Positions 5,817 to 26,197 of a DNA stretch of 47,167 nt are shown here, piece after piece. A program made the position numbers and the translations under genes. The DNA comes from Acidimicrobiales bacterium (lineage in GTDB: Bacteria > Actinomycetota > Acidimicrobiia > Acidimicrobiales > CADCSY01): the NCBI GenBank assembly GCA_050742255.1, contig JBOGHU010000024.1:1-47167 (forward strand). Direction: 5' to 3'. Position 1 is the stretch's first letter; each line of letters opens with the position of its first letter. The notes below the pieces were generated by a model. It was not told the origin of the DNA, made no database searches, and worked only from the letters and a program-made list of their open reading frames with translations.

Positions 5817-6128
5817 TCAGGTCCCCGTCGAGGTGCCCGAGTCGGTGTCGCCAGCCTCGACCTCGCCCCGGGCCAGGCGTGCGGCGAAGGTGCGCAACCG
5901 CTCCACCGAGCCGTCGTCGACAAGGTCCCCCCGGCGCCGCAATGCCCGCTTGACCTCGGTGTAGGTCACCGCCTCCAGCCCACAGCGCCGGCAGTCGTCG
6001 AGGTGCTGGGCAATCCGGCGGGCAGCCAGCTCGTCGATCTCGCCGTCGAGGTAGAACTGCAGCATCCGGCCGACCTCGCGGCACCCGAGCCGCCCGGACG
6101 CCAGCTGCCACCGGTGGCGGTCGATCAT
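5817..6128 (-). CDS. Zinc-binding anti-sigma factor (ZAS family, RsrA-like, no TM segment)
   Basis: ORF 5817..6128. HLDDCRRC matches the H-x3-C-x2-C motif. An upstream Cys16 lies 26 residues before the His, the same spacing I recall for RsrA C11/H37. Its start overlaps the sigma gene stop by 4 nt. Confidence 0.8.
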   Translation of the reverse strand: MIDRHRWQLASGRLGCREVGRMLQFYLDGEIDELAARRIAQHLDDCRRCGLEAVTYTEVKRALRRRGDLVDDGSVERLRTFAARLARGEVEAGDTDSGTSTGT

Positions 6129-6769
6129 CGCTCCACCTTCCTCGGTGCGTGCTCCGTGGCGGCCAGGTGGGCCTGGATCCGGCGGCGGGCCCGGTGGAGG
6201 CGGCTCATCACCGTCCCCACGGGGATGCCCAGCGCCTCGGCTGCCTCCTTGTAGCGGAGGCCGTCCACGTCCACCAGCTCCACGACCTGGCGGTAGCGCT
6301 CGGGCAGGGACGCCAGGGCGGCGTCGACGGCGGCGTCGAAGCCTCCGGCCACCACGACGCTCTCGGCGCTCTCCTCATGCGGCCTGCCGAGCGGCGGCCG
6401 GCGGTGGATCTCCTCGGCGTCGCGGAGCAGCTCGGGCCGCCGGCGCCGGACGCGGTTGATCTGGGCGTTGCGCATTATGGTGAGCACCCACGCCCGGGGG
6501 TGGCGGCCGTCGAAGCCACCGATCCCCCGGAACGCACGGAGCAGGGTGTCCTGCACCAGGTCTTCGGCGTCGGAGGGGTTGCGGGTGAGCGACAGGGCCA
6601 CGCGCCACAGCAGGTCGAGCTCGGGGACGACGTGGTCGGCGAAGGCCTGCTCCTGTGTGGCGTCCAGTCCCTCTGCCGGCTGCTCCACCGTTGTGGCAAC
6701 CCTCGCCCAACCAGCGGCATTCCCCCGGCGCGCCAGCCCGAAGGCCCGGCGCAACCCACCCCAGCCCAC
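6125..6769 (-). CDS. ECF (group IV) sigma-70 factor, SigR-like
   Basis: ORF 6125..6769. Region 2 DAEDLVQDTLLRAFR and region 4 HTH GIPVGTVMSRLHRARRRI. It starts at a GTG directly after the crp stop. A shorter in-frame start at GTG 6688 is possible (see promoter feature). Confidence 0.85.
   Translation of the reverse strand: MGWGGLRRAFGLARRGNAAGWARVATTVEQPAEGLDATQEQAFADHVVPELDLLWRVALSLTRNPSDAEDLVQDTLLRAFRGIGGFDGRHPRAWVLTIMRNAQINRVRRRRPELLRDAEEIHRRPPLGRPHEESAESVVVAGGFDAAVDAALASLPERYRQVVELVDVDGLRYKEAAEALGIPVGTVMSRLHRARRRIQAHLAATEHAPRKVER
6698..6724 (-). promoter_or_regulatory. SigR-type ECF promoter motif GGGAAT-N18-GTT inside the 5-prime end of the sigma ORF
   Basis: The minus strand reads GGGAATgccgctggttgggcgaggGTT. 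GGGAAT is 6724-6719 and GTT is 6700-6698. The in-frame GTG at 6688 lies 9 nt downstream. Confidence 0.5.
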
Positions 6770-8499: not shown

Positions 8500-8610
8500 A
8501 GGCCGGTCCTGGGGCGAAGCGCCACGTCTCTCGTCTGCTAGCCTTCCCTGATCCATAAGGGGAGCCTTCTACCGCTTAGTACGAGTGCCCTACAGGTTCG
8601 CTACGGCTAC

Positions 8611-9360
8611 GTGGTCGCCGTGCCCGAGGTGTCGCTCCAGCTGGAGCCCGGCGCGGTCACGACGCTCGTGGGCCCCAACGGCTCGGGCAAGAGCACGGTG
8701 CTCAACGCTCTGGCCCGTCTGGTCAAGCCCGACGGCGGCGCCGTCTACCTCGACGGTCGGGACATCGCCCGGCTCCCGACCAAGGAGGTGGCCAGGAGGC
8801 TGGCCCTCCTGCCTCAGGGCCTCTCCGCCCCGGGCGGCGTGAGCGTCCGCGAGCTCGTCGGCTACGGCCGTTACCCCCACCAGGGCCTTCTCGGGACGAC
8901 CACGGCAGAGGACGCTGACGCGGTGGCTTGGGCCATCTCGGCCACGGGCACCACGCCGTTGGCCGACCGAGCCGTCGACAGCCTCTCCGGCGGTGAGCGG
9001 CAGCGGGCATGGATGGCGATGGCGCTGGCCCAGCGGGCCGGTGTGCTCCTCCTCGACGAGCCGACGACCTTCCTCGACATCCGCTACCAGGTCGAGGTGC
9101 TGGGGCTGGTCCGCCGGCTGGTCGACGAGGAGGGCATCACGGTCGGGATGGTGCTGCACGACCTCAACCAGGCGGCTTCCGTCTCCGACCGCATGGCGTT
9201 CCTGTCCGCCGGCCGCATGGTCACGGTGGGACCACCAGGTGAGGTGATGACCACCGAGACCATCAGCGCCGTGTTCGAGGTCGAGGTCACCGTCCTGACC
9301 GATCCCGCCACGGGGCTCCCGACCTGTCTGCCCTACGGACGCCCCGCCCTCCTGCGGTGA
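8611..9360 (+). CDS. Iron-siderophore ABC transporter ATP-binding protein (FepC/FecE/FhuC-like)
   Basis: ORF 8611..9360. Walker A GPNGSGKST, signature LSGGERQR, Walker B LLLDEPTTFLD. The conserved N-terminal strand (LQVRYGY) is encoded upstream of the GTG at 8611, in a frame with no canonical start, so the real 5-prime end is unresolved (see findings). Confidence 0.8.
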   Translation: MVAVPEVSLQLEPGAVTTLVGPNGSGKSTVLNALARLVKPDGGAVYLDGRDIARLPTKEVARRLALLPQGLSAPGGVSVRELVGYGRYPHQGLLGTTTAEDADAVAWAISATGTTPLADRAVDSLSGGERQRAWMAMALAQRAGVLLLDEPTTFLDIRYQVEVLGLVRRLVDEEGITVGMVLHDLNQAASVSDRMAFLSAGRMVTVGPPGEVMTTETISAVFEVEVTVLTDPATGLPTCLPYGRPALLR

Positions 9361-9401
9361 CCGGCTCAAGCCCCCCAACCGAACGAAAGGACCTCACGCC
9401 C

Positions 9402-10385
9402 ATGCGCATGTCCACCGCCGCCCTGATCGCGTCGCTCGTCCTGCTAGCGTCCGGCTGCGGCAGCACCGATGATCCCACCAGCCCCACCGGAGAGGCCACC
9501 GAGGCGACCCCGGCCGGGACGATCACGGTCGACCACGCGCTCGGCACCCTCGAGCTCGACGAGGTGCCGGAGAGGGTCGTCGCGCTGGAGCTCGTCTACG
9601 CCGAGGACCTGGTCGCCCTCGGCGTCGACCCCGTCGGCGTGGCCGACGTGGAGAGCTACCGCCAGTTCGTCGGCGACCCGGAGCTGCCCCCAGGAGTGAC
9701 CGACGTCGGCACCCGCCAGGAGCCCAGCCTCGAGGCCATCGCCAGCCTCGAGCCCGATCTGATCATCGGGCCGCAGTTCCGCCACGAGCCAATCTACGAC
9801 CAGCTGTCCGCCATCGCCCCGACCCTGCTCTTCGACCCCTACCCCGAGGGCTCCGGGGCCATCGGCCAGCTGGAGGAGATGGAGCAGACCTTCCGTCAGA
9901 TCGCGACCGCCGTCGGCGCCTCGGAGAGGGCCGAGGCCGTGCTGGCGGACATGGAGGAGGCCTTCGACGAGGCGGGGTCCCGCCTCGTCGAGGCCGGGCT
10001 GGCCACCCAGGAGTTCGTGGTGGCCCAGGGCTTCACCGCCCAAGAGGTGCCGACGCTGCGGGTCTTCACCGACAACGCCATGGCGGTGGGGATCCTCGAG
10101 GAGATCGGGCTCGAGAACGCCTGGGGGGGCGAGCCCGACCGGTTCGGCTTCAACACGGTGGACCTCGAGGCGCTGACCGCCGCCGAACAGGCGAACCTCC
10201 TCTACTCGGTGCAGGCCGGCGACGACATCGTCGCCGAGAGCTTCGCCGGCAACCCCCTGTGGCAGGACCTCGCCTTCGTCCAGGAGGACCGCGCCTACCC
10301 CCTCGGCGCCGAGACGTGGCTGTTCGGCGGGCCCGTGTCCGCCGAGAAGCTGGTCGAGGTGGTCGCCGACGTGCTGACGGCGTAG
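9402..10385 (+). CDS. Siderophore-binding lipoprotein of an ABC importer (FhuD/FepB-like)
   Basis: Lies within ORF 9357..10385. The ATG at 9402 follows GAAAGGA. Lipobox LLASGC, and periplasmic-binding-protein type 2 features (VVALELVYAEDLVALGVDPVGVAD, EPDLIIG). Confidence 0.85.
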   Translation: MRMSTAALIASLVLLASGCGSTDDPTSPTGEATEATPAGTITVDHALGTLELDEVPERVVALELVYAEDLVALGVDPVGVADVESYRQFVGDPELPPGVTDVGTRQEPSLEAIASLEPDLIIGPQFRHEPIYDQLSAIAPTLLFDPYPEGSGAIGQLEEMEQTFRQIATAVGASERAEAVLADMEEAFDEAGSRLVEAGLATQEFVVAQGFTAQEVPTLRVFTDNAMAVGILEEIGLENAWGGEPDRFGFNTVDLEALTAAEQANLLYSVQAGDDIVAESFAGNPLWQDLAFVQEDRAYPLGAETWLFGGPVSAEKLVEVVADVLTA

Positions 10386-10395
10386 CCACCCTGCC

Positions 10396-12462
10396 GTGGC
10401 GTCGGAGCGGGCCGTCGCTCCGGGTGTCGGCCTGGCCCCCCCGCGGTGGACGCGAGGCGTGCTGGTGGTGGGCGTCGGGGTGGCGGCCCTGGTCACCGTG
10501 GTCGGGCTGCACGTCACCCAGGGGCGGGCCGACGTCGACCTGGTCGAGCTCTTGCGCGTGCTCGTGGGGGACGCCTCGGAGCGGGCTGAGGCGGTGGTCT
10601 ACGGGGCCCGGCTGCCCCGGGCCGCCGCCGGTGTCATCGCCGGGGCGGCGCTCGGCATCTCGGGGGCCCTGTGCCAGAGCGTCACCCGCAACCCCCTGGC
10701 GGCGCCCGAGACCCTGGGCGTGAACGCCGGTGCCTACCTGGCGGTGGTGGCGACCACGGTCGCCGGGGTGGGCCCGGGCGACACCTCCCAGCTGGGGGCG
10801 GCGTTCCTGGGGGGGCTGTCGGCGGCGGCGCTGGTGTACGCCGTCGCCGCCGGCGTCTCGCTCACACCGGTCCGGCTGGTGCTGGCAGGCATGGCGGTCA
10901 CCTTGGCCCTGTCGGCTCTCGCCGCCGTCCTCCTCCTGCTGTTCCAGCAGAAGACGGCCGGGCTGTTCTTCTGGGGCCAGGGCACGCTCGTGCAGACGGG
11001 CTCCTCGGACGTGGTTGCGGCCTGGCCCAGGCTGGTCGCGGCGGGCATGGCTGCCCTCCTCCTGGCCCGGGCCCTCGACGTGCTGTCGCTGGGCGACGAC
11101 CTGGCGCGCGCCCTCGGGTTGGCGGTAGCCCGCGTACGACTGGGCGCCCTCGCCCTGGCCGTGTTCCTCTCCGCCACCGCGGTGACGCTCACCGGGCCTA
11201 TCGCCTTCGTCGGCCTGGTGGCGCCCCATCTCGTCCGTCTGTCCGGCGTGACCCGTCACCGCCTGCTCCTGCCCGGCGCGGCGGTCTGGGGCGGGGTGCT
11301 CCTGATCGGCGCCGACGCCGTGGCGCGCGGTGTCCGGAACACCTCGCTCAGCAGCGAGCTGCCCGCCGGCGTGGTCACGGCCCTGGTGGGGGCGCCGTTC
11401 TTCGTCTGGCTGGCCCGGCGGGCCGGCGACACCCCCCCTGAGGCGCCGTCGTCTCCGGTGCGGACGGCCAGGACCGGCGGTGGGCGAGGGTACGTGACGG
11501 CGCTGGTCGGTGCCGGCGCTGCTCTGGCCGCAGCCGGGACGGCCGGCCTGGTCCTCGGGGACGTGAGGGTCCCTCTGGGCGAGCTCACCGCCGTCCTGGG
11601 CGGCCACGGCTCACCGCTCGGGACCCAGGTGCTCCTCCAGCTGCGCCTGCCCCGGGTCCTCGTCGCCGCCCTGGCCGGCGCCTCGCTGGCCGTCAGCGGG
11701 ACCCTGTTGCAGGCGGTGACCCGGAACCCACTGGTCGCCCCCTCCGTCGTCGGCATCAGCGGGGGTGCCGGCCTCGGTGCCCTCGCTGTGCTCCTCGTCC
11801 TGCCGGGTGTCCCGGTCGGCCTCCTGCCAGTGGCGGCGTTCATCGGCGGGCTGGCCGCCTTCGGCCTCGTGTACGGCGTATCGTGGCGAGGAGGGATCGC
11901 GCCCACCAGGCTGCTGCTCGTGGGCGTCGCCGTCTCCGCCTTCTGTACCTCGGCCATCAACTACCTGGTCGTGGGCGCCGACCTCCGCCTGGCCCAGGCA
12001 CTGACCTGGCTCTCGGGCAGCACTTACGCCCGCAGCTGGTCCGACCTGGCGGCGCTGCTGGCCTGGCCGGCCCTGCTCCTGCCCCTGGCCTGGCTCGGTG
12101 GCCGCCAGCTCGACGTCCTCGCCCTCGGCGAGCGCCTGCCCCGCACGCTCGGGATGCGCCTCGAGCAGGTGCGGGCCGCCCTGCTGGCCCTGGCGGTGCT
12201 GCTGGCCTCGGCTGCCGCCTCGGTCGTCGGCACCATCAGCTTCGTCGGGCTGGTCGCGCCCCACGCCACCCGCCTGCTGGTCGGCGGCCGCAACCGCAGG
12301 GTGATCCCCCTCGCCGCGCTGCTGGGTGCCACCCTCGTCGTCCTCGCCGACGTGATCGGCCGCGTCGTGCTGGCGCCCAAGGAGGTGCCCTCAGGCCAGG
12401 TCACGGCACTGATAGGGGCCCCGTACTTCGTCTGGCTGCGGAGCCGACGTCGGGCGGCGTAG
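10396..12462 (+). CDS. Fused double FecCD-domain siderophore ABC permease (FhuB-like)
   Basis: ORF 10396..12462 (688 aa, GTG start). Two tandem permease halves, each containing RNPLA/VAP..G and GxIxFVGLVAPH motifs. Confidence 0.85.
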   Translation: MASERAVAPGVGLAPPRWTRGVLVVGVGVAALVTVVGLHVTQGRADVDLVELLRVLVGDASERAEAVVYGARLPRAAAGVIAGAALGISGALCQSVTRNPLAAPETLGVNAGAYLAVVATTVAGVGPGDTSQLGAAFLGGLSAAALVYAVAAGVSLTPVRLVLAGMAVTLALSALAAVLLLLFQQKTAGLFFWGQGTLVQTGSSDVVAAWPRLVAAGMAALLLARALDVLSLGDDLARALGLAVARVRLGALALAVFLSATAVTLTGPIAFVGLVAPHLVRLSGVTRHRLLLPGAAVWGGVLLIGADAVARGVRNTSLSSELPAGVVTALVGAPFFVWLARRAGDTPPEAPSSPVRTARTGGGRGYVTALVGAGAALAAAGTAGLVLGDVRVPLGELTAVLGGHGSPLGTQVLLQLRLPRVLVAALAGASLAVSGTLLQAVTRNPLVAPSVVGISGGAGLGALAVLLVLPGVPVGLLPVAAFIGGLAAFGLVYGVSWRGGIAPTRLLLVGVAVSAFCTSAINYLVVGADLRLAQALTWLSGSTYARSWSDLAALLAWPALLLPLAWLGGRQLDVLALGERLPRTLGMRLEQVRAALLALAVLLASAAASVVGTISFVGLVAPHATRLLVGGRNRRVIPLAALLGATLVVLADVIGRVVLAPKEVPSGQVTALIGAPYFVWLRSRRRAA

Positions 12463-12468
12463 GCGCCT

Positions 12469-14318
12469 TCAGCCGAAGGCGACGAGCGGGTTGGTCACGG
12501 TGCCGTTGGGCTGCAGGGCGTGCCGCCGGGCCCGGTCGGTGTAGCGGATCACAACCAGGCGGTCCCGGTTCAGGGCGTAGCGAGGGAGCTCGGGCGCCAG
12601 CAGGTCGTACTCCCGGAACCGACGAGCCAGCCCGGGCCACCGGTCGTGGTAGGCCACCACCGTCTCCCTCACCAGGTGCCAGAACCGCCGCTCTGGCACA
12701 CCGAGCTGCTCCTCGAGCAGCGGCGCCAGGTACCGGAAGTGGCCGACGAAGACCTGGTCGACGACGTGTTGGCGGATCACCGACGGGTGCTTGCGGGGGA
12801 GCACGTGGTCGTGGGCGTCAGGCTCGGGCCCGCGCTCGGGCACGTCGCCGTGGGACACGCACACGTCGTCGATGAGGTCCTTCATGAACAGCCGACGTGG
12901 CGCCTCGTCGGCATCGAAGCCGATCAGGGTGTTCTGGCCGTGAGGGTTGAAGGTGATGCCGTAGTTGTAGAGGACGTGCATCAACGGGTCGAGAACGACC
13001 CCGAAGAGCCGGCGCAGCCACGTGTCCGGGTCGCTCCCCGACGCTCGTATGAGCTCCGCCACATAGGCCCTCCCGTCGCCGTCGACGTGCAGCAGGGAGG
13101 CGAACGTGCGGGCGCGCTCACCTCGGTCGAGGTACGAGGACACCGACTGGCGCCAGATGCAGCCCAGCGTCTCCAGGTGCTGGTAGGGGACGTCCGGAAC
13201 GCACGACAGGTGCGGGTGGCGGACCGTCACCGACGCCACCTCGCCGAGCAGCACCAGGCCACAGTCGTCGCGCAGCACCGGATCACGCCCGAGCAGGCCC
13301 TGCAGCCACTGGGTGACCATGGGCGCGCCGAGGCTGCAGTGCGGGGGTATCCCGCGCCACACCAGGGTGTTGAGGATGCGCAGCGGGAGCTTGACGTCGT
13401 GGCGCCGGCAGGTGTGACGTTGGTCAGCGTCCGGATCGACTGCTGCGGCAGGTACTCGTCGGGGCTCTCCCCCAGCGCCAGGATGCGCCGCTGCGCCACC
13501 TCTCCGGCGAACAGGATCTGGATGGCGTGGTCCCACTGCCAGGGGTGGACGGGCACCCACACGTAGGCGTCGGGGTCGAGACCGACCTCACGGTGCCGGG
13601 CGCGGAAGGCGGCGATGGTCCCCTCGTCGAGCTCGTGCTCCAGCAGCGACCGCTCGCTGCGGTCGGGAGTGGCCCGGAACTCAGCCAGTCCCCGGTGCAC
13701 GGCGATCCACCAGGGCCGCAACCGTGCGCCGGCCTCAGGGGCGTAGCGGCCGCTGTCGCTGGCGGAGAACCCCAGCCGTCCCTTGTTGGCTACCAGCCAG
13801 TTGTGCCCGGTCATGTGGCACTCCAGCTCGGCGTGTCCCCCCTGGCGCAGCTCTGCCGCGCTGGCGCCGCCGGCTTCCAGCCGTAGGGCGTCGGCGGCGA
13901 GGGTGGCCGACACCTCGTGGACGTAGGTGGCCAGCGTGGCGGGGTCGGTGCCGATGGTCGTACCGGCGTCGACGAGGAAGGCGAGGGCGTCCCACACCGG
14001 AGCCTCGACTCCGTCGCCGAGCAGCCCCGCCGCTCCCCGCGTGATCGAGCCGGGCCTGACCTGCCAGGACCCGAACGCCCCCCGCCGGGCCTCGAAGGCG
14101 TAGCTCACGCCGCTGTCCAGGTCGATCCGGTAGCGGTCGCCGCCCAGCGGCACCGGCTCCAGCATCCCCTCGAAGCTCCACTCCGACAGCGCCCTTGCCA
14201 GCAGCTGCCGGCCGGCCTCCCGCCACGCCTGCGCTCTCGAGGCGGTGACCGCAAGAGCAGCGGGGGGCGGGGCCGCGGGGCCGAGGGTCCGGACGGGCAG
14301 GGCCGAGGCAGGGCTCAT
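12469..14318 (-). pseudogene. IucA/IucC-family NIS siderophore synthetase (IucC/RhbF position), frame-disrupted
   Basis: The N-terminal 300 aa come from ORF 13227..14318 up to QQSIRTLTNVTP. The rest (HDVKLPLRILNT ... NPLVAFG) comes from ORF 12469..13560 in another frame. The junction lies between 13393 and 13418. The combined length of about 616 aa is typical of the family. AGGAAGGA precedes the ATG at 14318. Confidence 0.8.
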
Positions 14319-14359
14319 CGGGTCCTTCCTGAGGGGGGCGTGGAGGCGGTCACCGCGGC

Positions 14360-15661
14360 CTACAGGCCGCCGAAGGACTGGAACGCCGTCCGCTTGGGGA
14401 GCCGGAAGACCTCCCGACCAGCCACGGCGTTGAGGATCGTGGCGCTGCGATAGGCGCCGATGCCGAGGTCGGGAGAAGCTGCGCCGTGGGTGTGGAGCTC
14501 GGCGTTCTGGACGTACATCCCCCCGGTCACCTCCGGGGCGGTGCGAACGCGGTGGTCGACGCTGACGTCGTAGCGGCCCTTAGGGTCCCAGGCCACCAGG
14601 TGCCCGACCGGTGCCAGCAGGGATGGCGGCTCGGGCACGTACCCGGTGGCGGCCACCACCGCGTCGGCCTCGACGTTCACCTCCCGACCGGTGTCCCGGT
14701 GCCGGCCGGTGAGGCGGACCCCTCCGCCGGCGGGCTCCGCCGCAACGAGCTCGGCACCGGCCAGCAGTCGCACCGGTGGGCGGTGGCCGTCGAGCATGTG
14801 CTCGTACAGCTCGGCGTGGACCAGGTCGAGCGTCTCGGTGGAGATTCCCTTGTAGAGCTGCCACTGCGCCGACACCAGCTCGTCGCGCCTCGCCGGTTCG
14901 AGTCCGTGGAAGTAGCGCATGTACTCCGGCGTCGTCTGTTCGAGGACCAGCTTGGAGTAGTCGAGCGGGGCGAACGACGGCGTGCGGGTGAGCCAGGTGA
15001 GGCTCCAGCCGGCGGCGCGCTGGCGGCGGAGGAGGTCGACGAAGACCTCGGCGCCCGACTGCCCCGAGCCGACGACCGCCACGTGCCGGGCGCGCTGGTC
15101 GGCCAGTCGCTCGACGTTGCCCAGGTACTGGGCGGAGTGGAAGACCGGGGGGCCGGCCAACGGACGCAGCACGGTCGGCAGGTGGGGGCGGGTGCCAACG
15201 CCGAGCACGACGTTGCGGGCGGCCTGCCGGCGCCCCGTCCCGGTGGACACGTCCCGCAGCACCAGCACCCACACGTGGCGGCGGGCGTCCCAGTGCAGCT
15301 CCTCGACACAGGTCCCGAACCGGCAGGGGTCGAGTGAGGCCGCCACCCAGGCGCAGTAGCCGGCGTACTCCCGGCGGGGGATGTGGAAGCGCTCGGCGAT
15401 GTAGATGGGGTACATCCGGTCGTGGTCGACCAGGTACGACATGAACGACCAGCGGTTGGTGGGACTGACCAGGGATACCAGGTCGGCGAGGAAGCTCACC
15501 CTGGAGCGTGGCCCAGTCGAGCAGCAGGCCGGGGTGCCAGGAGAAGGCCGGCCGCCGGTCGTAGGCCTCGACCGCCAGGTCGGGCGCCTCGTCGGCCAGC
15601 GCGCACAGGCCCAGGTTGAAGGGCCCGATGCCGACCCCGGCGACGTCGAGGTCTCACTCAC
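14360..15661 (-). pseudogene. Diamine/lysine N-hydroxylating flavin monooxygenase (IucD/RhbE/DesB-like), frame-disrupted at the 5-prime end
   Basis: ORF 14360..15661 carries the family body (VSFLADLVSLVSPTNRWSFMSYL, NADPH motif VVGSGQSGAE). The FAD motif (DLDVAGVGIGPFNLGL...FSWHPGLLLDWATLQ) is encoded at 15653..15503 in a different frame, and that frame begins right after a TGA. The junction is at the CCC run 15499-15501. Confidence 0.8.
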
Positions 15662-16247
15662 CCCGAGGCCTCCACCGCGTCGGCGCGCTCCGCCACCATG
15701 AGGGCCGCGGTCTTGCCCCCGAGAGCGACGTCGCCCACTCGGGCGAAGCCGGCACGGGCAAAGGCGCGGATCGACGCCAGGTTGGCCACGTCAGGCTCGG
15801 CGACGAGCCGCGAGCAACGCCGGTCGGCGGCGAACAGGGCTCGGCGTACGGCGGAGAGCTGGGCCGTTCCCAGCCCCCGTCCCGTCCGGGCAGCGTCGCC
15901 GATCAGCAGGTGGATCCCGATGTCGTGCGGACGGGCCTCGTAGGCCCGAGCCAGCGGGTCGTGGGCGGCGCGGTACAGCTCCCAGTAGGAGATGGGTTCG
16001 CCGTCGAGCAGGCCCAGGCAGGGGCGGGAGACCCCGCCCGACAGCTGGTCACGGAGGTACCGGCCCATTCGGGGGCGCGACCACTCCTGGCGCCAGAACG
16101 CCGCCACGTGAGGCCGGTGCATCCACCGGTGCACCAGGTCGAGCTCGGCCGGGTCGTCGGCGTCGACGGCGCGCAGCCAGAACAGCCCGAACGGGGTTCG
16201 CCACGCCAGCGCCGCCGGGGGGGTCCGGGGTCGAGGTACGACGTCAC
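15658..16247 (-). pseudogene. Siderophore N-acetyltransferase (IucB/RhbD/DesC-like GNAT), frame-disrupted
   Basis: ORF 15658..16134 carries HRWMHRPHVAAFW and the GNAT core. The conserved upstream segment (FGLFWLRAVDADDPAELDLV) is in frame with it but has no start codon. The only start is GTG 16247 (MTSYLDPGPP) in another frame. The junction is at the 7-nt G run 16217-16223. Confidence 0.75.
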
Positions 16248-18011
16248 CTAGCCGTCCCCCGGAGGGGGTTGGGCACGTCGAGGTAGACCGACTGGGCGTC
16301 GACGGGGGGCGAGCACCTCGTCGATCCCAGCCATGCGGGTGAGGAAGTTGGCCTTGCAGGGAAGCGTGTCCGCCTCGAGCCAGCGGGCCACCAGGCCCGT
16401 GGGGGTATCTCCGCCTCGGGCCACCAGGGCTGCCAGCCGGTCACCCACGGCCTGCAGCAACCGGTCCTCCTCCGCCAGCCCTTCGGCACCGAGCGCGCCG
16501 ACCACCCCGAGGACGTTGTTGAACAGCAGGTAGTACGTCAGCGGGTCGTCCACCATCTCCTCGGGTGCGACGGCGAGGGATGTCTCGGCCGCTCCGCCGA
16601 GGTGGTCGAGCACCCCCGGCAGGCCCCAAGCGGCCAGGTAGAAGCCCTGGTTGTCGCGGAACCAACCCGTCGCCGGCCACCCGTCCCGGTCGAACCGAAC
16701 CAGGGTGTTCTGCTGGTGAGCCTCCAACCCGATGCCCGTGGTGGCGTAGAGGTGGACCATCGGAGCCAGCACCCCGTCGACGTGGCGCCGGGTCCACTCC
16801 ACGGCGACGTCGCGGGCGGCCACTCCCGTCCGTGCCGCCAGAGCCCGCACCTCATGGGCCAGCCGGGACGGACCGATGCCGGGCCGGGGGGCGACCAGCC
16901 CGGCCAGGCACACTGCCTCGACTAGCCCCTCGGCCACCTCGCGCACGGAGAGGTCCAGGTGGGTGGGAGCGTGGCCGTCGGCATCGTCGGGGGTGTGGAC
17001 CGCCAGCCACGCCGGGTCGCGCACGATCCGAAAGCCCGGGTAGGCCGCCATGGTGGCGTCGGCCAGCCCGGCGTCCAGCAGCCTGTGCACCTCAGTGCCC
17101 CGACGCAGCTCGGCCCGGGTGTGCTCCCGGCGCGAGTTGGTCAACCGCAGGCCGAGCGACAGCTTGAGCATCACCGCCGCGCCCGGTCGGTACACGGTGC
17201 GCAGCGAGGAGGTCGGGAACCAGCGCGGCCCCCACCGGGCCCAGGTGCTCCACCAGCCTGCGATCGAGGAGGCGACGCAGCGCCGGTCGGGCGAGCAGGT
17301 CGCGCCCCTGCCAGGGGTGGGCGGGCACGAGCACCCGACCCGGGGGGCCCTCGATCCCCGACAGCCCGCAGAGCAGCGCACGGACATCCTGGCCACCGAG
17401 CGCACGGTTGCCCTCCACGGTGTCGCTGGCCACCACCCCCGGATCGGCGGCGAACCAGTCCAGCTGGAAGGCGCCCCGCAGCTCGGGGCTCCACGCCGCC
17501 GCCTCGTTCTCGGAGATCCCGTCCCGGCTCTTCGGTGCCGGGTGGATGAGGTGGCCGAGCAACAGCGCCTGCTCTGCCTGGAGAAAGGCGTCGGCCCCGG
17601 GGGCCGGTCCCGGCTCGGCCTGCCTGGCGGCGAGGAACGTGGCCACCCGACGCATGCTCTCCGCCGCCCGCTCCACCAGGTCGGCACCGGCCCCAACCCT
17701 CCGGCGAAGCCCTCCTGCTGCCTCCCGGACCAGGAGCGCGGTCAGGGTCACCGCGTCGAGGGGCGCACCGGGCAGGCCATCGGCGCTCGACAGCTGGGGG
17801 GCCCGAAGTGGTGCACACCGGCGGCTGAGCGGTGCAGGACCTCGGTGACGACGGTCACGCCGAGGGTGCCGAGCGGGATCCGCGGCCGCTGTCCCGGCGG
17901 CGGGGGGGTCAGGCCGGTCTCCCGGGTCCAGCAGCGCAGGAGGCCGTCGGTGGCGGCGGCGTCGGCCAGGGCTTCGGCGTCGGTGGCGGCGGGGGCGGCG
18001 CCGGCCGTCAC
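16244..18011 (-). pseudogene. IucA/IucC-family NIS siderophore synthetase (IucA/RhbC position), with at least three frame disruptions
   Basis: Family-like sequence is spread over four ORFs: 17748..18011 (N-terminus), 17092..18027 (middle, HPAPKSR, PAHPWQ), 16248..17696 (SSLRTV..KLSLGLRLTNSRRE..EAHQQN) and 16244..16489 (C-terminal YLDVPNPL). Junctions are at G/C runs 17796-17801, 17229-17233 and 16304-16309. Confidence 0.8.
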
Positions 18012-19585
18012 CTGTCCTCCTCGTCACCGGCCCGGACGACCGCGTCGAGCAACGCGTCGACGTCGTGGGTCTGGGCCCTCGGGTTGAGCAGCGTGAGCTT
18101 CAGCTGAACGGTGGGCCGGCCCTGGGCGTCGTCGACCGTGGTCCGCCCTATGAGCACCGCCCCGCTGCGCATCAGCCGGCGGCGCAGCCCCGCGTTCAAG
18201 GCGTCGACCCGATCGGGGGCGAGGGCGAGGTGGCGGCGAGGCAGGTAGCGGAAGACGACCGTGGTCGGCAGCGCCCCCGAGGTCAGCTCCAGGCGGGGGT
18301 GGGCGCGGACCCGTCGCCCGGCGTAGCTGGCCAGGTCGTGGCAGGTGTCGAGCAGCGCTCCGAGGCCTCGGCGGCCGAGCACGAGGAACGTGGCGGCCAC
18401 CTTCAGCGCATCGGCGCGACGGGTCGTGGCCAGCGACCGGTTGAGCAGCCCGTCGTAGCCTTCGGCTCCGTCGTCGCACGGGTTCAGATAGGCGACCCTG
18501 CGGCCGTGCTCGTCGAGGTCGGCGGCGTGACGCACCAGCAGGGCGCTGGCGGCGGCCGGCTGCCAGGCGGTCTTGTGCAGGTCGAGCGTGATGGTGTCGG
18601 CGGCGTAGAGCCCGGCGAGCAGAGGGCGCAGGCGATCCGAGAACAGCGCCCCACCCCCGTAGGCGGCGTCGACGTGCAACCGCACCCCGTGCCGACGGGC
18701 GACCTCGGCTATCTCGGGAAGCGGGTCGACCGAGCCGAAGTCGGTCGTGCCGGCGGTCGCGACCACGGCCAGGGGCAAGGCGTCCTCCCCGAGGCCGCCG
18801 ATGGCGGCTTCCAGGGCGTCGGCTCGCATCCGCCACCGGTCGTCGACCGCAACCGGCATCACCGCGTCCTCTCCGAGCCCGAGCACGCCGCAGGCCTGGG
18901 CGACGGAGAAGTGCGCCACCCGGGAGCAGAGCACGACCGCCCTGCGGCCCAGGCCGCTCACCCCGGTGGCGGGGACGTCCCGGGCCAGGCGGGTGCGGGC
19001 GGTGACGTCGCGAGCGAGCAGGAGCCCATGGAGGTTGGACGCAGTGCCGCCGGAGGTCAGGACACCGCCGGCCTTGCCGCCGTAGCCGGCGAGGTCGGTC
19101 AGCGCGCTCACGACGTGGCGCTCCAGCTCGACGGCGTAGGGGCCGCTGTCCCAGGTGTCGACCGAGGCGTTGAAGACGTTGGCCAGCAGGTCGGCGGCGG
19201 CGGCGACCGTGAGGGCAGGCGGCTGCAGATGGGCGGCGGCGGCGGGGTGGGACAGGTCGACGGTCCCTTCGGCGTAGCGCCGAGCGAGGGAGAGCAGGGC
19301 GGCCGCACCGCCTCCGCGGTCAGGCAGGACGGCTCCCAGGTCCGTGGCCACGCGCTGGGCCAGGGCGGCGGGGCTGGCGCCCGGGAGCGGCCCTCTCCGC
19401 CGACGAAGCCCGGTGGCGGCCGCCGCCGTCACCGCACCGACCAGCCGGGCGACGCCGGCCAGGCCGGCGGGGCCACCGGCGAGCAGGCCTTCTTCGAGGA
19501 GGATGTCGTCCGTCCAGGGGGACGGTGGGCTGGCCGAGGAGTCCCTCGTGCTGGGCTCGAGCACGGCCCCGAGACGAGTCACCAA
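18008..19585 (-). CDS. PLP-dependent group II decarboxylase (diaminobutyrate/lysine/ornithine decarboxylase; RhbB/DesA-like)
   Basis: ORF 18008..19585 is intact at 525 aa. It has the PLP-lysine context TLDLHKTAWQP and GGTASNLHGLLLAR. The stop overlaps the next gene start (GTGA). Confidence 0.85.
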   Translation of the reverse strand: MVTRLGAVLEPSTRDSSASPPSPWTDDILLEEGLLAGGPAGLAGVARLVGAVTAAAATGLRRRRGPLPGASPAALAQRVATDLGAVLPDRGGGAAALLSLARRYAEGTVDLSHPAAAAHLQPPALTVAAAADLLANVFNASVDTWDSGPYAVELERHVVSALTDLAGYGGKAGGVLTSGGTASNLHGLLLARDVTARTRLARDVPATGVSGLGRRAVVLCSRVAHFSVAQACGVLGLGEDAVMPVAVDDRWRMRADALEAAIGGLGEDALPLAVVATAGTTDFGSVDPLPEIAEVARRHGVRLHVDAAYGGGALFSDRLRPLLAGLYAADTITLDLHKTAWQPAAASALLVRHAADLDEHGRRVAYLNPCDDGAEGYDGLLNRSLATTRRADALKVAATFLVLGRRGLGALLDTCHDLASYAGRRVRAHPRLELTSGALPTTVVFRYLPRRHLALAPDRVDALNAGLRRRLMRSGAVLIGRTTVDDAQGRPTVQLKLTLLNPRAQTHDVDALLDAVVRAGDEEDR

Positions 19586-19592
19586 GGCGAGG

Positions 19593-19622
19593 AGAGTAGG
19601 TAAGGTCCGCTGAATCCGTCAA
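19593..19622 (-). promoter_or_regulatory. Candidate promoter of the siderophore biosynthesis operon, probably leaderless
   Basis: The minus strand reads TTGACG (19622-19617), an 18-nt spacer, TACTCT (19598-19593), then 7 nt to the TTG start at 19585. There is no Shine-Dalgarno sequence. This is the only AT-rich stretch in the region. Confidence 0.35.
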
Positions 19623-19664
19623 GCTCGGTATACCTAATATCATCTCTGAGGAGAGGCGAATACC

Positions 19665-20960
19665 ATGCGGCGAAGGCTCGTCCGGGCCGCCTACCGTGCT
19701 CGGGAGGGAGGGGGCTTGGTGAAGGGCGTCGATGGAAGGGGCAGGCGCGCTCTCTTGACGGCCAGGCGAGCAGCTCGGTCGGCCCGCCACGTCGGGGGCC
19801 AGGTCAGGTCACGGCGCCCTCCCGCCCGGGCGCAGGGCGGCCGGTTGGTCACGCCCGGCTTCCTCCTGATCATGGCGGCCACCTTCGCCTACTTCCTCGG
19901 CATCGGCGCCCTGCTGCCCACGGTGCCCCGCTACACGGCGGGTCCTCTGGGCGGGGGGAGCCTGGCGGTCGGAGTCGTGGTCGGGTCGTTGAGCCTGACC
20001 GCCGTCGTGCTGCGCCCGTGGGCGGGATGGGTGGCCGACCGACGAGGCCGCCGGCTGCTGATGGTCGCGGGGGCGGCCCTGGTGGGCGTCTCGGTGGCGT
20101 CCTACGTCGTCGCCCGCTCCCTCGCCGTCCTGGTGCCGCTGCGCCTCGTCACCGGTGCGGGTGAGGCGCTCTTCTTCGTGGGGGCTGCCAGCGCCATCAA
20201 CGACATCGCTCCGGACGCCCGACGAGGAGAGGCGACCAGTTACTTCTCCCTCTCCCTCTACGGAGGCCTGGCGGCGGGACCGGCGATCGGCGAGCTCGTG
20301 CTCGCCGGTGGTCGCTACGGCGCCGTGTGGCTGGTGGCGGCGGGCGGCGCCTTGGTCTCAGCGTTGCTCGCGGCCGGCGTGCGAGAGCCCCGCCCCACCG
20401 AGCCGACCCCTTCGCCGTCGAGGCGGCTCGTGCACCCGGCCAGCCTCCCGGCCCGGGACCGTGCTCCTGGCCAGCGTGTGGGGCCTGGCTGCCTTCACCG
20501 CCTTCGTGCCGCTCTACGCCCTTGATCTCGGGCTCGGGGGCTCCCGCGCCATCTTCGTCGTGTTCTCCGTGACCGTCCTGGTCATCCGCAGCGTCGGTGC
20601 TCGAATCCCCGACCGGCTGGGCTTCCACCGGTCGGCTCGGACGGCGCTGGCGTGCTCGGCTGCCGGCTTGGCCACGATGGGCCTGTGGCGGGCGCCGGCG
20701 GGCCTCTTCGCCGGAGCCGGGCTGTTCGGCCTCGGCCAGTCCCTGGCCTTTCCCGCCCTCCTCTCCCTGGCGGTGAGGAGCGCACCGCCCCACGACCGCG
20801 GGTCGGTCGTGGGGACTTTCACGGCCTTCTTCGACCTGGGGTTCGCGGTCGGATCCGTGACCCTGGGAGCGGTGGCCGCTGGCTTGGGCTACGCAGGGAC
20901 GTTCGTGGTCGCGGCCGGGATCACGTTGTCCGGCCTGCTCGTGCTGTCGGGGCGCGGGAT
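19665..20960 (+). pseudogene. MFS transporter (putative siderophore exporter), frame-disrupted and with an undefined 3-prime end
   Basis: TM1-6 are in ORF 19665..20525 (FLLIMAATFAYFLGIGALLPTVPRY...). TM7-12 are in ORF 20155..21540 (GTVLLASVWGLAAFTAFVPLYALDLG...). The junction lies near 20445-20460. ATG 19665 follows GAGGAG, and alternative starts are TTG 19845 and ATG 19872. No stop codon occurs in any forward frame between the last TM helix (about 20950) and 21198. Confidence 0.65.
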
Positions 20961-21022
20961 GCCCCGGCCCGGGTTCCTGTGCGGTCCACCCCGACAGAGC
21001 CGCTCGACCGCACGGAAACCGG

Positions 21023-23797
21023 CTACGACCGCTCCGGCGCCCCGCGGCCTGGGGGGCGAACCCCCGTGGCGGAGACGCCCCCGTCCGCGAGGGCGGCGGC
21101 GATGGTCTGCCCCGCCGGTCGAGCTGCGCCGACAGCACGGGAGTGGTCGAACGTCTCTCGGGTCAGGGCGTTGCGCACCGTGGCCAGCGTCTCCTCGTAA
21201 CCGGCCGGGTGGGCGGGCGGGAGCAGCATGCCGACCTGCACCCGGACGGCCTCGCGTGCACCGTCCAGCTCGGCAGCACGCTCGTGGTGCCCGCGCCGGG
21301 CAGCCACCCCCGCCAGGCCTTCCAGGCACCAGGGCAGGTACATCAGGTTGCCGATGGCATGGAACCCCGTCGCTGCCTCGGCGAACAGCTCCCGCGCCCG
21401 CGCGACGTCGTCGTCGGCGAGCTCGACGTGGCCCAGCAAGGTCAACGACATGGCCGAGCTCCAGCGGTCGTCGTATCGCCGGGCCAGCGTCAGGCTCTCC
21501 TCCAACAGCGTGCGGGAGCGCGCCACGTCGTCAAGGTTGAGGACGGCGGACCCGAGACCGGCTAGGTCTCTGGCCAGGCGGTGCTCGTCCCCCCGGTCAC
21601 GGTCCAGCGCCAGGCACTCCTCGAAGATGCTCGACGCACGCTCGTGCTCGCCTCGGAAGAGCGCGACGTTGCCCGACAAGAAGAGCATCTCGGCGGTCTG
21701 ACCGGTGTCGCCGAGGGTTCGGGAAAGGCCCAGCGCCTCGGTCCCGAGCGCCTCGGCTCGCTCGTACGCGCTCGCGTTGAGGGCTTGCCATGCCACGAGG
21801 AAGAGCGCCCGCGCCAGGATGTCTTGGTCCCCGAGCTCCCTCGCCACGGCCAGGCCCTCCTCCGCGAGGGCACACGCGGGGGCTGCATCGCTGGTGAACA
21901 TCGCCGCGTAGGCCAAGCCGAGCAGCGCCGTGGCCTCACCGGGCCGATCTCCGGCCGACCGCGCCAGGCGGAGCGCCGCCCGGTGATCCCGTGCCGAGTC
22001 GACGTAGCGGTCCTGCTCGCGTGCGAGCAGGCCCTGCACGTTGAGGGCGGCGACGAGGTCTGACGGCCCTCCCTGGTCGCGGCCGAGGGCCACGGCGAGC
22101 TCGCAGTGCCTCGCCGCTTCGTCGTGGGCAGCCTGTTCGATCGCCAGTGTCGCCGCCCCGACGAGCGCATTGACACGTGTGGACGGGGCGATGGTGCCGG
22201 TGGCGACGGGGCGCTCCAGCGCGTCGCGCAGCCACTGACGTCCTTCGCTGAGATGACCCCGCCGATGCCAGAAGCGCCAGAGGACGCTGGCCAGGCGCAG
22301 CGCCGTCGCGCCGTCACCTTGCTCCGCCGCCCAACCCAGGCCGGCCCGCAGGTTGCCGTGCTCGCGGTCCAGTCGTGCCAGCCCGGCCGCCGCGTCCGGT
22401 CCACCGAGTGCCGGCTCTGCCTCCTCCGCGACGCTCAGATAGTACGCCACGTGCCGCTGCCGCACGGCTTCGGCCTCGGCCTGCGCCTCCAGCTGCTCGA
22501 GCCCGTACTCGCGGATGGTCTCGAGCAGGGTCAGGCGCGGCGCTCCAGGCCTGCTGCCGGGGCCTCCCCGTGCGAATGCCTCCTGTACACGGACCAGGCT
22601 GCTGTCCACCAGCGCGGTCAGCCCGTCCAGCAGGGCCGGCCCGCCCGCCTCCTCTCCACACACCATCTCCGCCCCCTCCAACGTGCAGCCGCCCACGAAC
22701 ACGCACAGCCGGCGGAAGAGCGCCTGTTCTGATCCCTCCAGCAGGTCGTAGCTCCAGGCGATCGCATCCCGCATGGTCTTCTGACGGGCCGGCAGATCAT
22801 GGGGCCCGCCGACCAGGAGCGGCAACCGCCGGTCCAGTCGATCGAGCAACGCCGGCGGCGGCAGCAGCCTCGCCCGGGCCGCAGCCAGCTCGATGGCCAA
22901 GGGCAGGCCGTCGAGCCGGCGACAGACCTCGGCCACGACAGGCATCGTCTCGGCGTCCAGCCGCAGCTCTGTCCCGGCGGCACGCGCCCGCTCCAGGAAC
23001 AGCTCCACGGCCGGCGATCGTGCCAGGGCCTCCGGCGGGTCGGCCGGGCCGGGCAGGGCAAGGGGAGCGATCGGGTACTCGCGTGCACCCCGCACGCGCA
23101 GCGCGACCCGGCTCGTCGCCAGGACGACCACACCCGGACAGGCCTCCAGCAGGGCGCGCACCGCGTCGCCTGCAGCGAGGACGTGCTCGAAGTTGTCCAG
23201 CAACAACAGCAGCCGCTTGCCTCGCAGTGACGCGGTCACGCGGTCGAGCAGCGGCGTGGCGTCCCACTCGTCCACCCCCAGCTGCTGGGCGAGGGAGCCG
23301 AACACGAGCGTCGGGTCGCGCAAGGGCGCGAGGTCGACGAAGATGACCCCGTCGGTGAAGTCGTGCGCTGAGCGCCCTGCCACCTCGATGGCGAGGCGGG
23401 TCTTGCCCACCCCGCCCGGTCCCGTCAGCGTGAGCAGCTGGGCATCGCCCCGGAGCTCGACCAGCGCGGCGGCGACGCTGGCGCGGCCTATCAGTGGCGT
23501 GAGCGGCCGCGGCATGACCGGCCTCGGTGGCGCCGTGACCGGAGCGGTGGCGCCCGCAAGGTCGCCCGGCTGCGCTGCCGCCAGGAGACCCACCCGTACG
23601 TCGGGGGCGACGCCCAGCGCGTCGGCGAGCAGCGTCACGGTCCCGAGTCGCGGGGTGCGGTGGGGATCTCGCTCCAGGTCGCTGACCGCCTTCGGGCTCA
23701 GCCCGGCGCGCTCGGCGAGGGCCTCCTGGGTCAGGCCCGCCGCCAGACGCTGGCGCTTCAGCAGCGCCCCAAACCTCATCGCCTCCGGGCTCGGCAT
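21023..23797 (-). CDS. XRE-type HTH - NB-ARC/STAND ATPase - TPR regulator
   Basis: Lies within ORF 21023..24010. HTH LKRQRLAAGLTQEALAERAGLSPKAVSDLER, P-loop GPGGVGKTRLA, Walker B LLLLDNFEH, and long TPR-like repeats to the C-terminus. The start is ATG 23797 or 23779. Confidence 0.8.
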   Translation of the reverse strand: MPSPEAMRFGALLKRQRLAAGLTQEALAERAGLSPKAVSDLERDPHRTPRLGTVTLLADALGVAPDVRVGLLAAAQPGDLAGATAPVTAPPRPVMPRPLTPLIGRASVAAALVELRGDAQLLTLTGPGGVGKTRLAIEVAGRSAHDFTDGVIFVDLAPLRDPTLVFGSLAQQLGVDEWDATPLLDRVTASLRGKRLLLLLDNFEHVLAAGDAVRALLEACPGVVVLATSRVALRVRGAREYPIAPLALPGPADPPEALARSPAVELFLERARAAGTELRLDAETMPVVAEVCRRLDGLPLAIELAAARARLLPPPALLDRLDRRLPLLVGGPHDLPARQKTMRDAIAWSYDLLEGSEQALFRRLCVFVGGCTLEGAEMVCGEEAGGPALLDGLTALVDSSLVRVQEAFARGGPGSRPGAPRLTLLETIREYGLEQLEAQAEAEAVRQRHVAYYLSVAEEAEPALGGPDAAAGLARLDREHGNLRAGLGWAAEQGDGATALRLASVLWRFWHRRGHLSEGRQWLRDALERPVATGTIAPSTRVNALVGAATLAIEQAAHDEAARHCELAVALGRDQGGPSDLVAALNVQGLLAREQDRYVDSARDHRAALRLARSAGDRPGEATALLGLAYAAMFTSDAAPACALAEEGLAVARELGDQDILARALFLVAWQALNASAYERAEALGTEALGLSRTLGDTGQTAEMLFLSGNVALFRGEHERASSIFEECLALDRDRGDEHRLARDLAGLGSAVLNLDDVARSRTLLEESLTLARRYDDRWSSAMSLTLLGHVELADDDVARARELFAEAATGFHAIGNLMYLPWCLEGLAGVAARRGHHERAAELDGAREAVRVQVGMLLPPAHPAGYEETLATVRNALTRETFDHSRAVGAARPAGQTIAAALADGGVSATGVRPPGRGAPERS

Positions 23798-23921
23798 ACG
23801 GGCGAACCGCCAAACATCCAGGAAACGGACAGGACTCGGGGAGCGCTCGACCTGGTCAGCCGACCGGGCGCCCCACACCATGAGACCAGACCGCAGGCCG
23901 AGAAGACAAGGAGACCGAGCC

Positions 23922-25195: not shown

Positions 25196-26197
25196 ATGGG
25201 CACGACCGATCCATCGACCTTGCGTGGCACCCACGAGGCTCCGGCCACCCGTTGGACGTCAGGCGCGCCCACCTCGTTCGTCCGGACCGCAGGCCTGTCA
25301 TGCCTGGTCGGCGCCCTCATCGGCGTGGTCAGCGCGCTCGTCACGGCCTTCATCCCACCCTCCGTCTCGTCGGAGCGGTACAGCTATCCGTACACACCGA
25401 CTGGCTTCGTCATGGCCGAGATGGTCTTCATCGTCAACCACGTGCTGCTGCTCGTGGGGATGCTCGGTCTGGCCCGTTCCGGCGCCGTCGGTACCGGCCG
25501 CCTCGGGCGCACCGGCCTGTGGATCTCGATCAGCGGGATGGCCGCGCTCACGCTGTGCGAGGTACGTGCGGCGAGGTTGGCCAATGATCCCTACCCCTCG
25601 CCGAGCACCGATGCCCTCGAAGGTCTCTTCGGTGTCGCTTCGGTCCTCATCGGCCTCGGCCTGGTGCTCGCAGGCATCGCGGTCGTGCGAGCGCGCCATT
25701 GGGCCGGCTGGCACCGGTTCGTGGCGCTGACCTGCGGCGTCGCCGTCTTCGTCATCGTGATCCCGGGCGTCTTCGGCCCCTTCCTCGCCGGCCGCCTGGT
25801 CCTCGCTGTCTGGATGCTGATGTTCGCGGCGCTCGGGGCGGCCCTGCTCCGGGCGCTCCCGTCGCGGCGGCCCTGCTCTCCGGTCACTCGACGTCGGTGG
25901 GCGACGCCGGACGACCGGAGAACAGGACGGCCTGAGCCGCAAGGCGCGCTCAGGGCCGCCATGGGTGGTCCCGTCGCGGATGCGCCGTTACAGTCTGGGC
26001 GCCACAGCCTGCTCGCCCGATCGGAGCAGGCCGGCAAGGGGGAGTCTCATGCGCGAGGAGTTGCGGGTCGAGGTCCGGCCCTTCGGCCCGAGCCCGGAGG
26101 CCCTCGGCCAGTTGGCGGCACGGCTGACCGACCATCCGCTCGTGCGCGAGACGCTCGGCCGGGCACGCCACCGGGTGCTGGGCTGGGACCTGGTTGA
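25196..26197 (+). CDS. Polytopic membrane protein of unknown function, 3-prime end doubtful
   Basis: ORF 25196..26197, with its ATG after AGGAGA. About 6 hydrophobic helices up to about 25860. The remaining 110 aa are R/P-rich and overlap the next gene by 149 nt. An alternative frame ends at 25935. Confidence 0.5.
   Translation: MGTTDPSTLRGTHEAPATRWTSGAPTSFVRTAGLSCLVGALIGVVSALVTAFIPPSVSSERYSYPYTPTGFVMAEMVFIVNHVLLLVGMLGLARSGAVGTGRLGRTGLWISISGMAALTLCEVRAARLANDPYPSPSTDALEGLFGVASVLIGLGLVLAGIAVVRARHWAGWHRFVALTCGVAVFVIVIPGVFGPFLAGRLVLAVWMLMFAALGAALLRALPSRRPCSPVTRRRWATPDDRRTGRPEPQGALRAAMGGPVADAPLQSGRHSLLARSEQAGKGESHARGVAGRGPALRPEPGGPRPVGGTADRPSARARDARPGTPPGAGLGPG

Follow-up and report, generated by a model that had tools for sequence, protein, structure and literature searches.

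Probable recent and still polymorphic decay of a hydroxamate siderophore locus in an uncultured actinobacterium

The siderophore locus and its source

The window analysed here, i.e. the entire 47,167-nucleotide (nt) metagenome contig JBOGHU010000024.1 (G+C content ~72 %), carries a rhizobactin/aerobactin-type hydroxamate siderophore locus belonging to the NIS class (independent of nonribosomal peptide synthetases, NRPS), of which the biosynthesis and export genes are interrupted by eight frame breaks. Nearest homologs were encountered in metagenome-assembled genomes (MAGs) of Micromonosporaceae and Actinocatenispora and in Streptomyces, at only 61-75 % amino-acid identity. No close relatives were found: the best decarboxylase match among genome contigs displayed 67 % identity, while the best IucA homolog (5.8 billion proteins searched) and the best hydroxylase homolog displayed 66 % and 72 %, respectively. 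Judging from the sequence, the source would be an uncultured high-G+C actinobacterium without a sequenced close relative. Comparison with the orthologous locus of a close relative was consequently impossible, one sister contig excepted. This contig, CDHSUX010000098.1 (GCA_975255135.1, 49,755 nt), was found via a 100 %-identical membrane protein and was compared with the window as pieces L039, L040, L042, L044, L046 and L047. Two Logan contigs from SRR27067772, L043 (window 16320-18132) and L045 (window 18556-25583), were also considered.

The biosynthesis genes lie on the minus strand in the order decarboxylase, IucA-like synthetase, acetyltransferase, N-hydroxylase and IucC-like synthetase. 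Neighbouring genes overlap by 4 nt (GTGA, stop/start) at three of their junctions, and are separated by 41 nt at the fourth. The gene of a transporter of the MFS type is divergent from them, and the plus strand also holds a Fhu-type ABC importer. The locus comprises the following features (corrected lengths, in amino acids (aa), are those obtained after repair of the breaks):

8542..9360, plus strand: FecE/FhuC-like ABC ATPase of the siderophore importer, probable start ~8569 (Pfam ABC_tran)
9357..10385, plus strand: FhuD-like siderophore-binding protein (Pfam Peripla_BP_2, positions 1-233 of 235)
10396..12462, plus strand: fused FhuB-like permease, 688 aa (Pfam FecCD, twice)
12469..14318, minus strand: IucC-like NIS synthetase (Pfam IucA_IucC, split), one break, corrected 616 aa
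14360..15661, minus strand: lysine/ornithine-type N-hydroxylase (Pfam Lys_Orn_oxgnase), two breaks, corrected 433 aa
15658..16247, minus strand: IucB-like N-acetyltransferase (Pfam Acetyltransf_8), one break, corrected 196 aa
16244..18011, minus strand: IucA-like NIS synthetase (Pfam IucA_IucC, split), three breaks, corrected 588 aa
18008..19585, minus strand: decarboxylase dependent on pyridoxal phosphate (PLP) (Pfam Pyridoxal_deC, positions 39-374 of 375), intact
~19842..20979, plus strand: MFS transporter, putative exporter (two Pfam MFS_1 halves), one break

Both synthetase genes carry PF04183 and PF06276 (IucA_IucC and FhuF-domain), and the hydroxamate-forming pair is represented by PF13434 (276 bits, N-hydroxylase) and PF13523 (158 bits, N-acyltransferase). 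The ancestral product was presumably a citrate-dihydroxamate of the arthrobactin/schizokinen type. The best match to an IdeR/DmdR iron box in a scan of both promoter regions displayed 7/19 mismatches, which was no better than in shuffled sequence. Two motifs resembling IdeR/DmdR half-sites, GTAGGTAAGG and GTATACCTAA, were seen at 19597-19637 in the decarboxylase/MFS intergenic region; being ~22 nt apart and not abutting, they could represent a disrupted operator or a coincidence.

Frame breaks in biosynthesis and export genes

Eight firm breaks had been listed in the initial annotation, and all were retrieved at the positions given there or a few bases away: three in the IucA-like gene, two in the N-hydroxylase gene and one each in the acetyltransferase, IucC-like and MFS genes. 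They were examined with Pfam profiles, with tblastn using intact orthologs from syntenic loci (L001, L014, L017 and L035) and from Streptomyces loci, and with a Viterbi frame caller trained on the codon usage of the window contig itself; these three independent approaches were in agreement on the breaks. The Pfam profile IucA_IucC was split over frames in both synthetase genes (positions 2-131 and 126-238 in one of them, 3-143 and 145-239 in the IucC-like one). Frame changes under tblastn were located at 13404-13416, ~15500, 16305, 17215-17231 and 17763-17796, and mid-gene Viterbi switches at 13415/16, 15499/500, 17220/21, 17802/03 and 20459/60. As read at the junctions, all lesions were of ±1 nt and lay in mononucleotide runs of one to eight bases. 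A single edit per site yielded open reading frames (ORFs) of 588, 196, 433 and 616 aa with zero internal stops, and alignments of these with full-length homologs spanned 97-100 % of each ORF. With seven ±1 breaks in four biosynthetic genes, and gene calls from both sources shortened, the locus does not display the uninterrupted genes of a functional NIS cluster.

The IucA-like gene consisted of four frame segments when aligned with its L001 ortholog. On the coding strand, its breaks corresponded to a contraction of C7 to C6 at 17796-17801 (-1) and to extensions of G4 to G5 at 17229-17233 (+1) and of C5 to C6 at 16304-16309 (+1); the corrected protein covered 99 % of full-length homologs at 65-66 % identity. 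The acetyltransferase gene starts with a GTG coupled to the IucA stop by GTGA, and this start was cut off from the conserved domain by a contraction of C8 to C7 (-1, coding strand) in the G7 run at 16217-16223. Its corrected N-terminus aligned with orthologs across G.F.LR.VDP..D..L.H.WM. The gene was called at 136 aa in the sister contig, the break being common to both assemblies.

Breaks in the N-hydroxylase gene were an extension of GG to GGG at 15499-15501 (+1, coding strand) and the loss of one base at 15652/3 (-1), which together displace the FAD-binding motif GVGIGPFN from the reading frame. Accordingly, the Pfam match of the long ORF started at profile position 53 (1-52 missing) and tblastn placed segment 15501-15650 in a different frame; the gene call was 379 aa in both the window and the sister contig. 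In the IucC-like gene, GGG was shortened to GG at 13404-13406 (-1, coding strand). Its corrected product aligned without gaps with orthologs at 67-72 % identity, and a conserved arginine was restored.

The MFS gene carried a +1 break in a CCC/GGG stretch at ~20445-20460, within the central loop, so that its two Pfam MFS_1 halves lay in separate frames and its shortened product was 286 aa long, with an identical product in the sister contig and in L045. At its 3' end (20950-21540), no stop was found in any plus frame after the last transmembrane helix until 21200 or 21540, and the ORF thus extends in antisense orientation into the 3' terminus of a convergent 924-aa HTH/NB-ARC/TPR regulator gene (stop at 21023). 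The absent stop was either a lost stop or an additional lesion, and neither the sister contig nor the Logan contig differed from the window in this respect.

Poly-G tracts are known to switch iron-uptake genes in Neisseria and Haemophilus, and phase-variable (contingency) control, with G/C homopolymers as reversible on/off switches of siderophore production, would agree with five of the eight breaks lying in G/C runs of four to eight and with the differing length of the 17229-17233 run between assemblies. It was nevertheless judged extremely improbable. Switching on five genes with eight OFF lesions at once would require as many coordinated reversions, and several of the lesions share a gene where a single long tract per switchable gene would be expected. 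Three of the lesions are in runs of two to three bases and one lies outside any run; moreover, the tracts are situated within conserved coding sequence in which orthologs display ordinary codons.

Distribution of lesions along the contig

The breaks had been described as confined to the siderophore locus. This held as far as the other ORFs cover their Pfam profiles in one frame, but a conserved membrane-protein gene starting at 25196 reads past its natural stop. The other ~30 kb of coding sequence was clean except for the following feature of that gene:

25838..25895, plus strand: probable 29-nt direct duplication at the 3' end of the conserved membrane-protein gene (25196-), outside the siderophore locus

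The coding signal of this gene fades near 25860 while its frame stays open to 26197, across a terminator-like hairpin and the next ribosome-binding site (RBS) and ATG; the resulting ORF is 333 aa long against ~219 aa in homologs. Deleting one copy of the 29-nt repeat (25838 or 25867) gave a 236-aa protein ending at TGA 25933-25935, beside the hairpin. The duplication is therefore probably a lesion outside the locus, and not a homopolymer slip. At the same spot (window 25829-25960; L039 10752-10766 region), the sister contig displayed a further tandem duplication of ~131 nt and a 1-nt insertion, and the region looks like a local duplication hot-spot beside the terminator-like hairpin (25930-25958). 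Other junction candidates were discarded as ordinary gene boundaries: 24333 (SnoaL/cupredoxin), 26046 (RBS, with ATG at 26048) and 5100-6130 (small sigma/anti-sigma genes).

The breaks clustered far beyond chance, as initially claimed, and did not track homopolymer content. By coding length, the probability of finding all eight within the locus was P = 4.5e-5, or 3e-4 when the duplication was counted as a ninth lesion outside; for the six breaks shared with the sister contig alone it was 5e-4. The locus includes 32 % of G/C/A/T runs of at least five bases and 37 % of those of at least six, leaving 63-68 % of runs outside, none of which is broken. Among coding runs of at least six bases, 42 of 46 were unaffected. 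The G7 run of an unbroken BNR gene, cited in this context at 2174-2180, sits at 2179-2185. Half of the breaks (four of eight) were found in runs of one to three bases and a fifth in a run of four.

Recurrence of the breaks in other assemblies

The sister contig spans window positions 2438-47003 at ~99.9 % identity. Between the two sequences, ~30 substitutions, six 1-nt indels, one 12-nt in-frame indel and duplications of ~31 and ~131 nt were counted, and the sister contig is therefore not a copy of the window. Six of the eight breaks were identical in the sister contig: 13405 in the IucC-like gene, 15500 in the hydroxylase gene, 16220 in the acetyltransferase gene, 16306 and 17799 in the IucA-like gene and 20452 in the MFS gene. 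The remaining two, 15652 and 17229-33, were private to the window; there, the sister contig displayed an additional base, giving MSEILDVAGVGIGPF, and C4 in place of C5, respectively. Both may be strain polymorphisms or consensus errors of the window contig and are individually uncertain.

Logan contig L043 carried the 17799 break and displayed C4 at 17229-33, while L045, which carried the 20452 break, matched the window over 7,028 nt with 100.000 % identity. Of the six shared breaks, 17799 and 20452 were those covered by these contigs. Window, sister and Logan assemblies were identical over 17234-25834. Look-ups with the 136-aa acetyltransferase and a 269-aa IucC fragment returned the sister contig only and no further Logan contigs. 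Exact-protein look-ups with the decarboxylase, the pyrophosphatase, the binding protein and the N-terminal IucC fragment gave no match, owing to deviating start calls or to single-residue differences from the sister contig.

Outside the siderophore locus, the sister contig contained an extra C (CC to CCC, +1) at window 31667 (L039 16590, L040 2616). It frameshifts a LivG-like branched-chain amino-acid ABC ATPase, called at 192 aa there and intact with 273 aa in the window. Inter-assembly substitutions formed tight pairs or triplets spanning less than 31 nt at 2550-2557, 3899-3916, 8599-8608, 14276-14292, 14985-15013, 15391-15406 and 46906-46937. Such groups resemble consensus noise at low depth, or multi-nucleotide events, more closely than the usual single-nucleotide differences between strains.

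Importer genes and the piracy reading

All three domain types of a Fhu-type importer were present, each with an NCBIfam score below the equivalog cut-off. The binding protein (FhuD-like match) and the permease were intact in the window, the latter matching NCBIfam FhuB over residues 21-684 and yielding a single tblastn high-scoring segment pair (HSP) at 10510-12435. In the sister contig, the permease gene was frameshifted twice (+1 at window 10769, -1 at 11426; gene calls of 242 and 322 aa), and nonsynonymous differences between the two lineages were observed in the binding protein and in the N-terminus of the ATPase.

A ninth break, suggested with reserve at the CCC run 8588-8590 of the ATPase gene, was not borne out: a canonical start codon is instead absent at the position where homologs begin. 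Orthologs and the FecE profile place the ancestral start at codon 8569-8571, now CTA. Position 3 of the NCBIfam FecE profile aligned with residue 2 of the translation from 8572, N-termini of orthologs read MSIEISASDLTLGHG, and a good RBS, AAGGGGAG, lies upstream at 8556-8563. No ATG, GTG or TTG occurs in any frame at 8560-8584, and the first in-frame start (GTG 8611) would delete strand beta-1 and the A-loop tyrosine. The sister contig was in the identical state, with a gene call of 249 aa from GTG 8611. The CCC-run frameshift was rejected since a start at GTG 8585 would lose most of strand beta-1 and would lie 21 nt from the RBS. The ATPase gene was thus read as having apparently lost its start codon.

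The initial annotation had viewed the pattern as siderophore piracy, in which biosynthesis and export decay while the importer is kept by selection for the hydroxamates of neighbours. Synthesis lost with a receptor retained is documented, e.g. in the aerobactin cluster of Aliivibrio salmonicida (PMC5812596). Inactivated biosynthesis and an intact binding protein and permease in the window conform to this view, and lesions spread uniformly over the locus would miss these two genes and the decarboxylase gene with p ~0.01-0.02. The decarboxylase was indeed intact in the window as claimed (one tblastn HSP at 18026-19531, 66 % identity to the ortholog query), which by chance would occur with p ~0.3; for binding protein and permease, joint escape by chance had p ~0.07-0.10. 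Retention of uptake was not supported, as the ATPase is devoid of a canonical start in either assembly and the sister lineage carries a disrupted permease gene. The nonsynonymous differences in binding protein and ATPase and the lack of a recognisable IdeR/DmdR box also speak against piracy. A shared FhuC, as described in Staphylococcus aureus, can sometimes take the place of an absent cognate ATPase, and piracy would be possible with, e.g., a shared FhuC-type ATPase encoded elsewhere, but it is unsupported and was considered doubtful. The importer was not demonstrably protected, and relaxation of selection over the whole locus is the simpler reading.

Decay of the locus or consensus error

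Genuine decay of biosynthesis and export, as put forward in the initial annotation, was the better reading for most breaks, i.e. for the six that recur in the sister contig, two of them also in Logan contigs; it was less secure for the two private to the window. Overall, the locus has probably undergone genuine, recent and still polymorphic pseudogenisation, importer included. Most economically, the whole locus would have been released from purifying selection, upon which replication slippage in short G/C runs could have built up. Further lesions would then differ by lineage, with two more in biosynthesis genes of the window and two more in the importer permease of the sister.

Several observations are consistent with this. 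Breaks in short runs are not a homopolymer-sequencing signature, and the perfect match of L045 argues for accurate reads. Four of the five coding frameshifts private to one of the two assemblies fell inside the siderophore locus (p = 0.026). In the hydroxylase, residues invariant in 14 orthologs displayed derived changes (F to I in the window, R to S and R to H in the sister contig). G+C content at third codon positions (GC3) was 0.90-0.935 in broken genes, as in intact ones, so any decay would be recent. The absence of in-frame stops, considered as an argument against decay, was uninformative: P(0 stops) was ~0.5-0.65 at the substitution-to-indel ratio of the locus.

Other observations weigh against decay, and several of them favour a consensus or assembly error restricted to the locus. 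Siderophore genes would then be intact in the organism, read support would be poor at ~13.4-20.5 kb (e.g. through low coverage or reliance on one noisy long read), and the sister and Logan contigs, assembled from reads in common with the window, would have inherited the indels. The breaks are known from assembled consensus only, and a literature search on SRR27067772 returned no paper. The starts of the window and sister contigs lie within ~8 nt of each other, so that both may derive from one set of reads, and the shared breaks would then not count as fully independent; four of the shared sites (13405, 15500, 16220 and 16306) were without confirmation from a third assembly. Differences between the assemblies were noise-like, with a nearly random substitution spectrum (transitions to transversions 12:18) and codon-position distribution (8:9:7), many differences paired at distances below 31 nt and short duplications in tandem, so that at least one assembly holds consensus errors or very young unfiltered variants. 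Nonsynonymous to synonymous changes amounted to 8:1 inside and 9:5 outside the locus, which was not significant (p = 0.21). Only ±1 lesions were encountered, without larger deletion or nonsense mutation, and corrected ORFs were perfect. Two breaks were demonstrably assembly-specific (15652 absent from the sister contig, 17229-33 absent from both sister and Logan contigs), and the sister contig had frameshifts (permease, LivG-like ATPase) and duplications of its own (31 and 131 nt).

Error was nevertheless considered unlikely. The 30 kb of flanking coding sequence is free of ±1 frameshifts in the window despite containing most of the homopolymer runs, and half of the breaks lie in runs of at most three bases. 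Logan contigs are k-mer-based, only k-mers seen at least twice being kept, and they retain the 17799 and 20452 breaks besides matching the window perfectly over 7 kb. The stretch over which the three assemblies agree is not ambiguous.

A further reading was that the locus is a local indel hot-spot and not simply unselected. Within the locus, four private indels were counted against nine substitutions, there were no nonsense mutations and GC3 was unchanged. A hot-spot would explain why frameshifts outpace substitutions. It would also account for the additional frameshifts that arose within one 12-kb region in two co-existing and nearly identical lineages, at different sites in each. Its cause could be transcription-associated slippage in an operon expressed under iron starvation, and the organism may lack MutS/MutL. 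This reading was held to be very improbable; if true, it would provide a natural example of locus-targeted, indel-biased mutagenesis driving the loss of a public good.

Relation to known systems

Rhizobactin 1021 of Sinorhizobium meliloti, specified by operon rhbABCDEF, belongs to the citrate dihydroxamates of the schizokinen/arthrobactin type. The order of enzyme types in the window matches rhbB-F, and RhbB is the best NCBIfam model of the decarboxylase, at 307 bits against a cut-off of 900 and hence below equivalog level. Unlike the S. meliloti system, the window locus is devoid of an rhbA-type diaminobutyrate aminotransferase gene, its transporters are an actinobacterial MFS protein and a Fhu-type ABC importer instead of RhtA/RhtX, and four of its five biosynthetic genes are frameshifted. 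The rhb genes, though not their order, are taken from PMC2848241.

Resemblance to the desferrioxamine genes desABCD of Streptomyces and relatives was found in the DesA-like decarboxylase, DesB-like hydroxylase, DesC-like acyltransferase and DesD-like IucC synthetase, and the nearest Streptomyces homologs of hydroxylase and decarboxylase (loci L003 and L012) occur in des-like arrangements. Whereas des clusters have a single synthetase, the window combines an IucA-type with an IucC-type enzyme in an rhb-like order, as do L001, L014, L017 and L035.

The aerobactin (iucABCD) cluster of A. salmonicida was inactivated by frameshifts while the IutA receptor was retained (PMC5812596); kind of lesion and enzyme family are the same as here. 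That species is a Gram-negative pathogen of fish which has been cultured and possesses a TonB-dependent receptor, whereas the window stems from an uncultured actinobacterium with an ABC importer. In the latter, the number of lesions is higher, some of them vary between near-identical contigs, and the ATPase, as well as the permease in one lineage, is also damaged. Natural siderophore non-producers ("cheaters") likewise lose a costly secreted public good (PMC5812596, PMC6906993) and are the textbook case of such loss (PMC6906993). Classical cheaters keep working uptake, whereas uptake is here only predicted from genes and the ATPase start is defective.

Siderophore clusters killed by frameshifts are already documented, and what is added here is the partial polymorphism of the lesions among lineages that are nearly identical. 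Provided that the breaks are real, the window would show an uncultured actinobacterial population in the wild midway in its loss of a secreted pathway for iron scavenging, would fit Black-Queen and public-good theory, and would warn genome miners of a dead biosynthetic cluster. Since two assemblies of what is essentially one stretch of DNA disagree on two of the eight breaks, pseudogene calls in metagenome-assembled contigs need read-level confirmation.

Other features of the contig

The 12-nt in-frame indel between window and sister contig is situated in the H+-pyrophosphatase gene at 40774-40785 and involves a short tandem repeat of the ATCGCC type. Near the end of the contig, an IS21-family element was recognised (IstA 43621-45021, IstB 45018-45824), although IstA gave no match to the rve core domain at E < 0.01. 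Beyond 47003 the two contigs diverge fully, the sister continuing into small ORFs and a phage-type integrase; this end is a strain-variable mobile region where assemblies break. A PIN-domain gene with a small upstream partner, likely a toxin-antitoxin pair, lies in the 35458-36349 region and was called at 126 and 75 aa in the sister contig. It is adjoined by tRNA-Gly(CCC) at 36278-36349.

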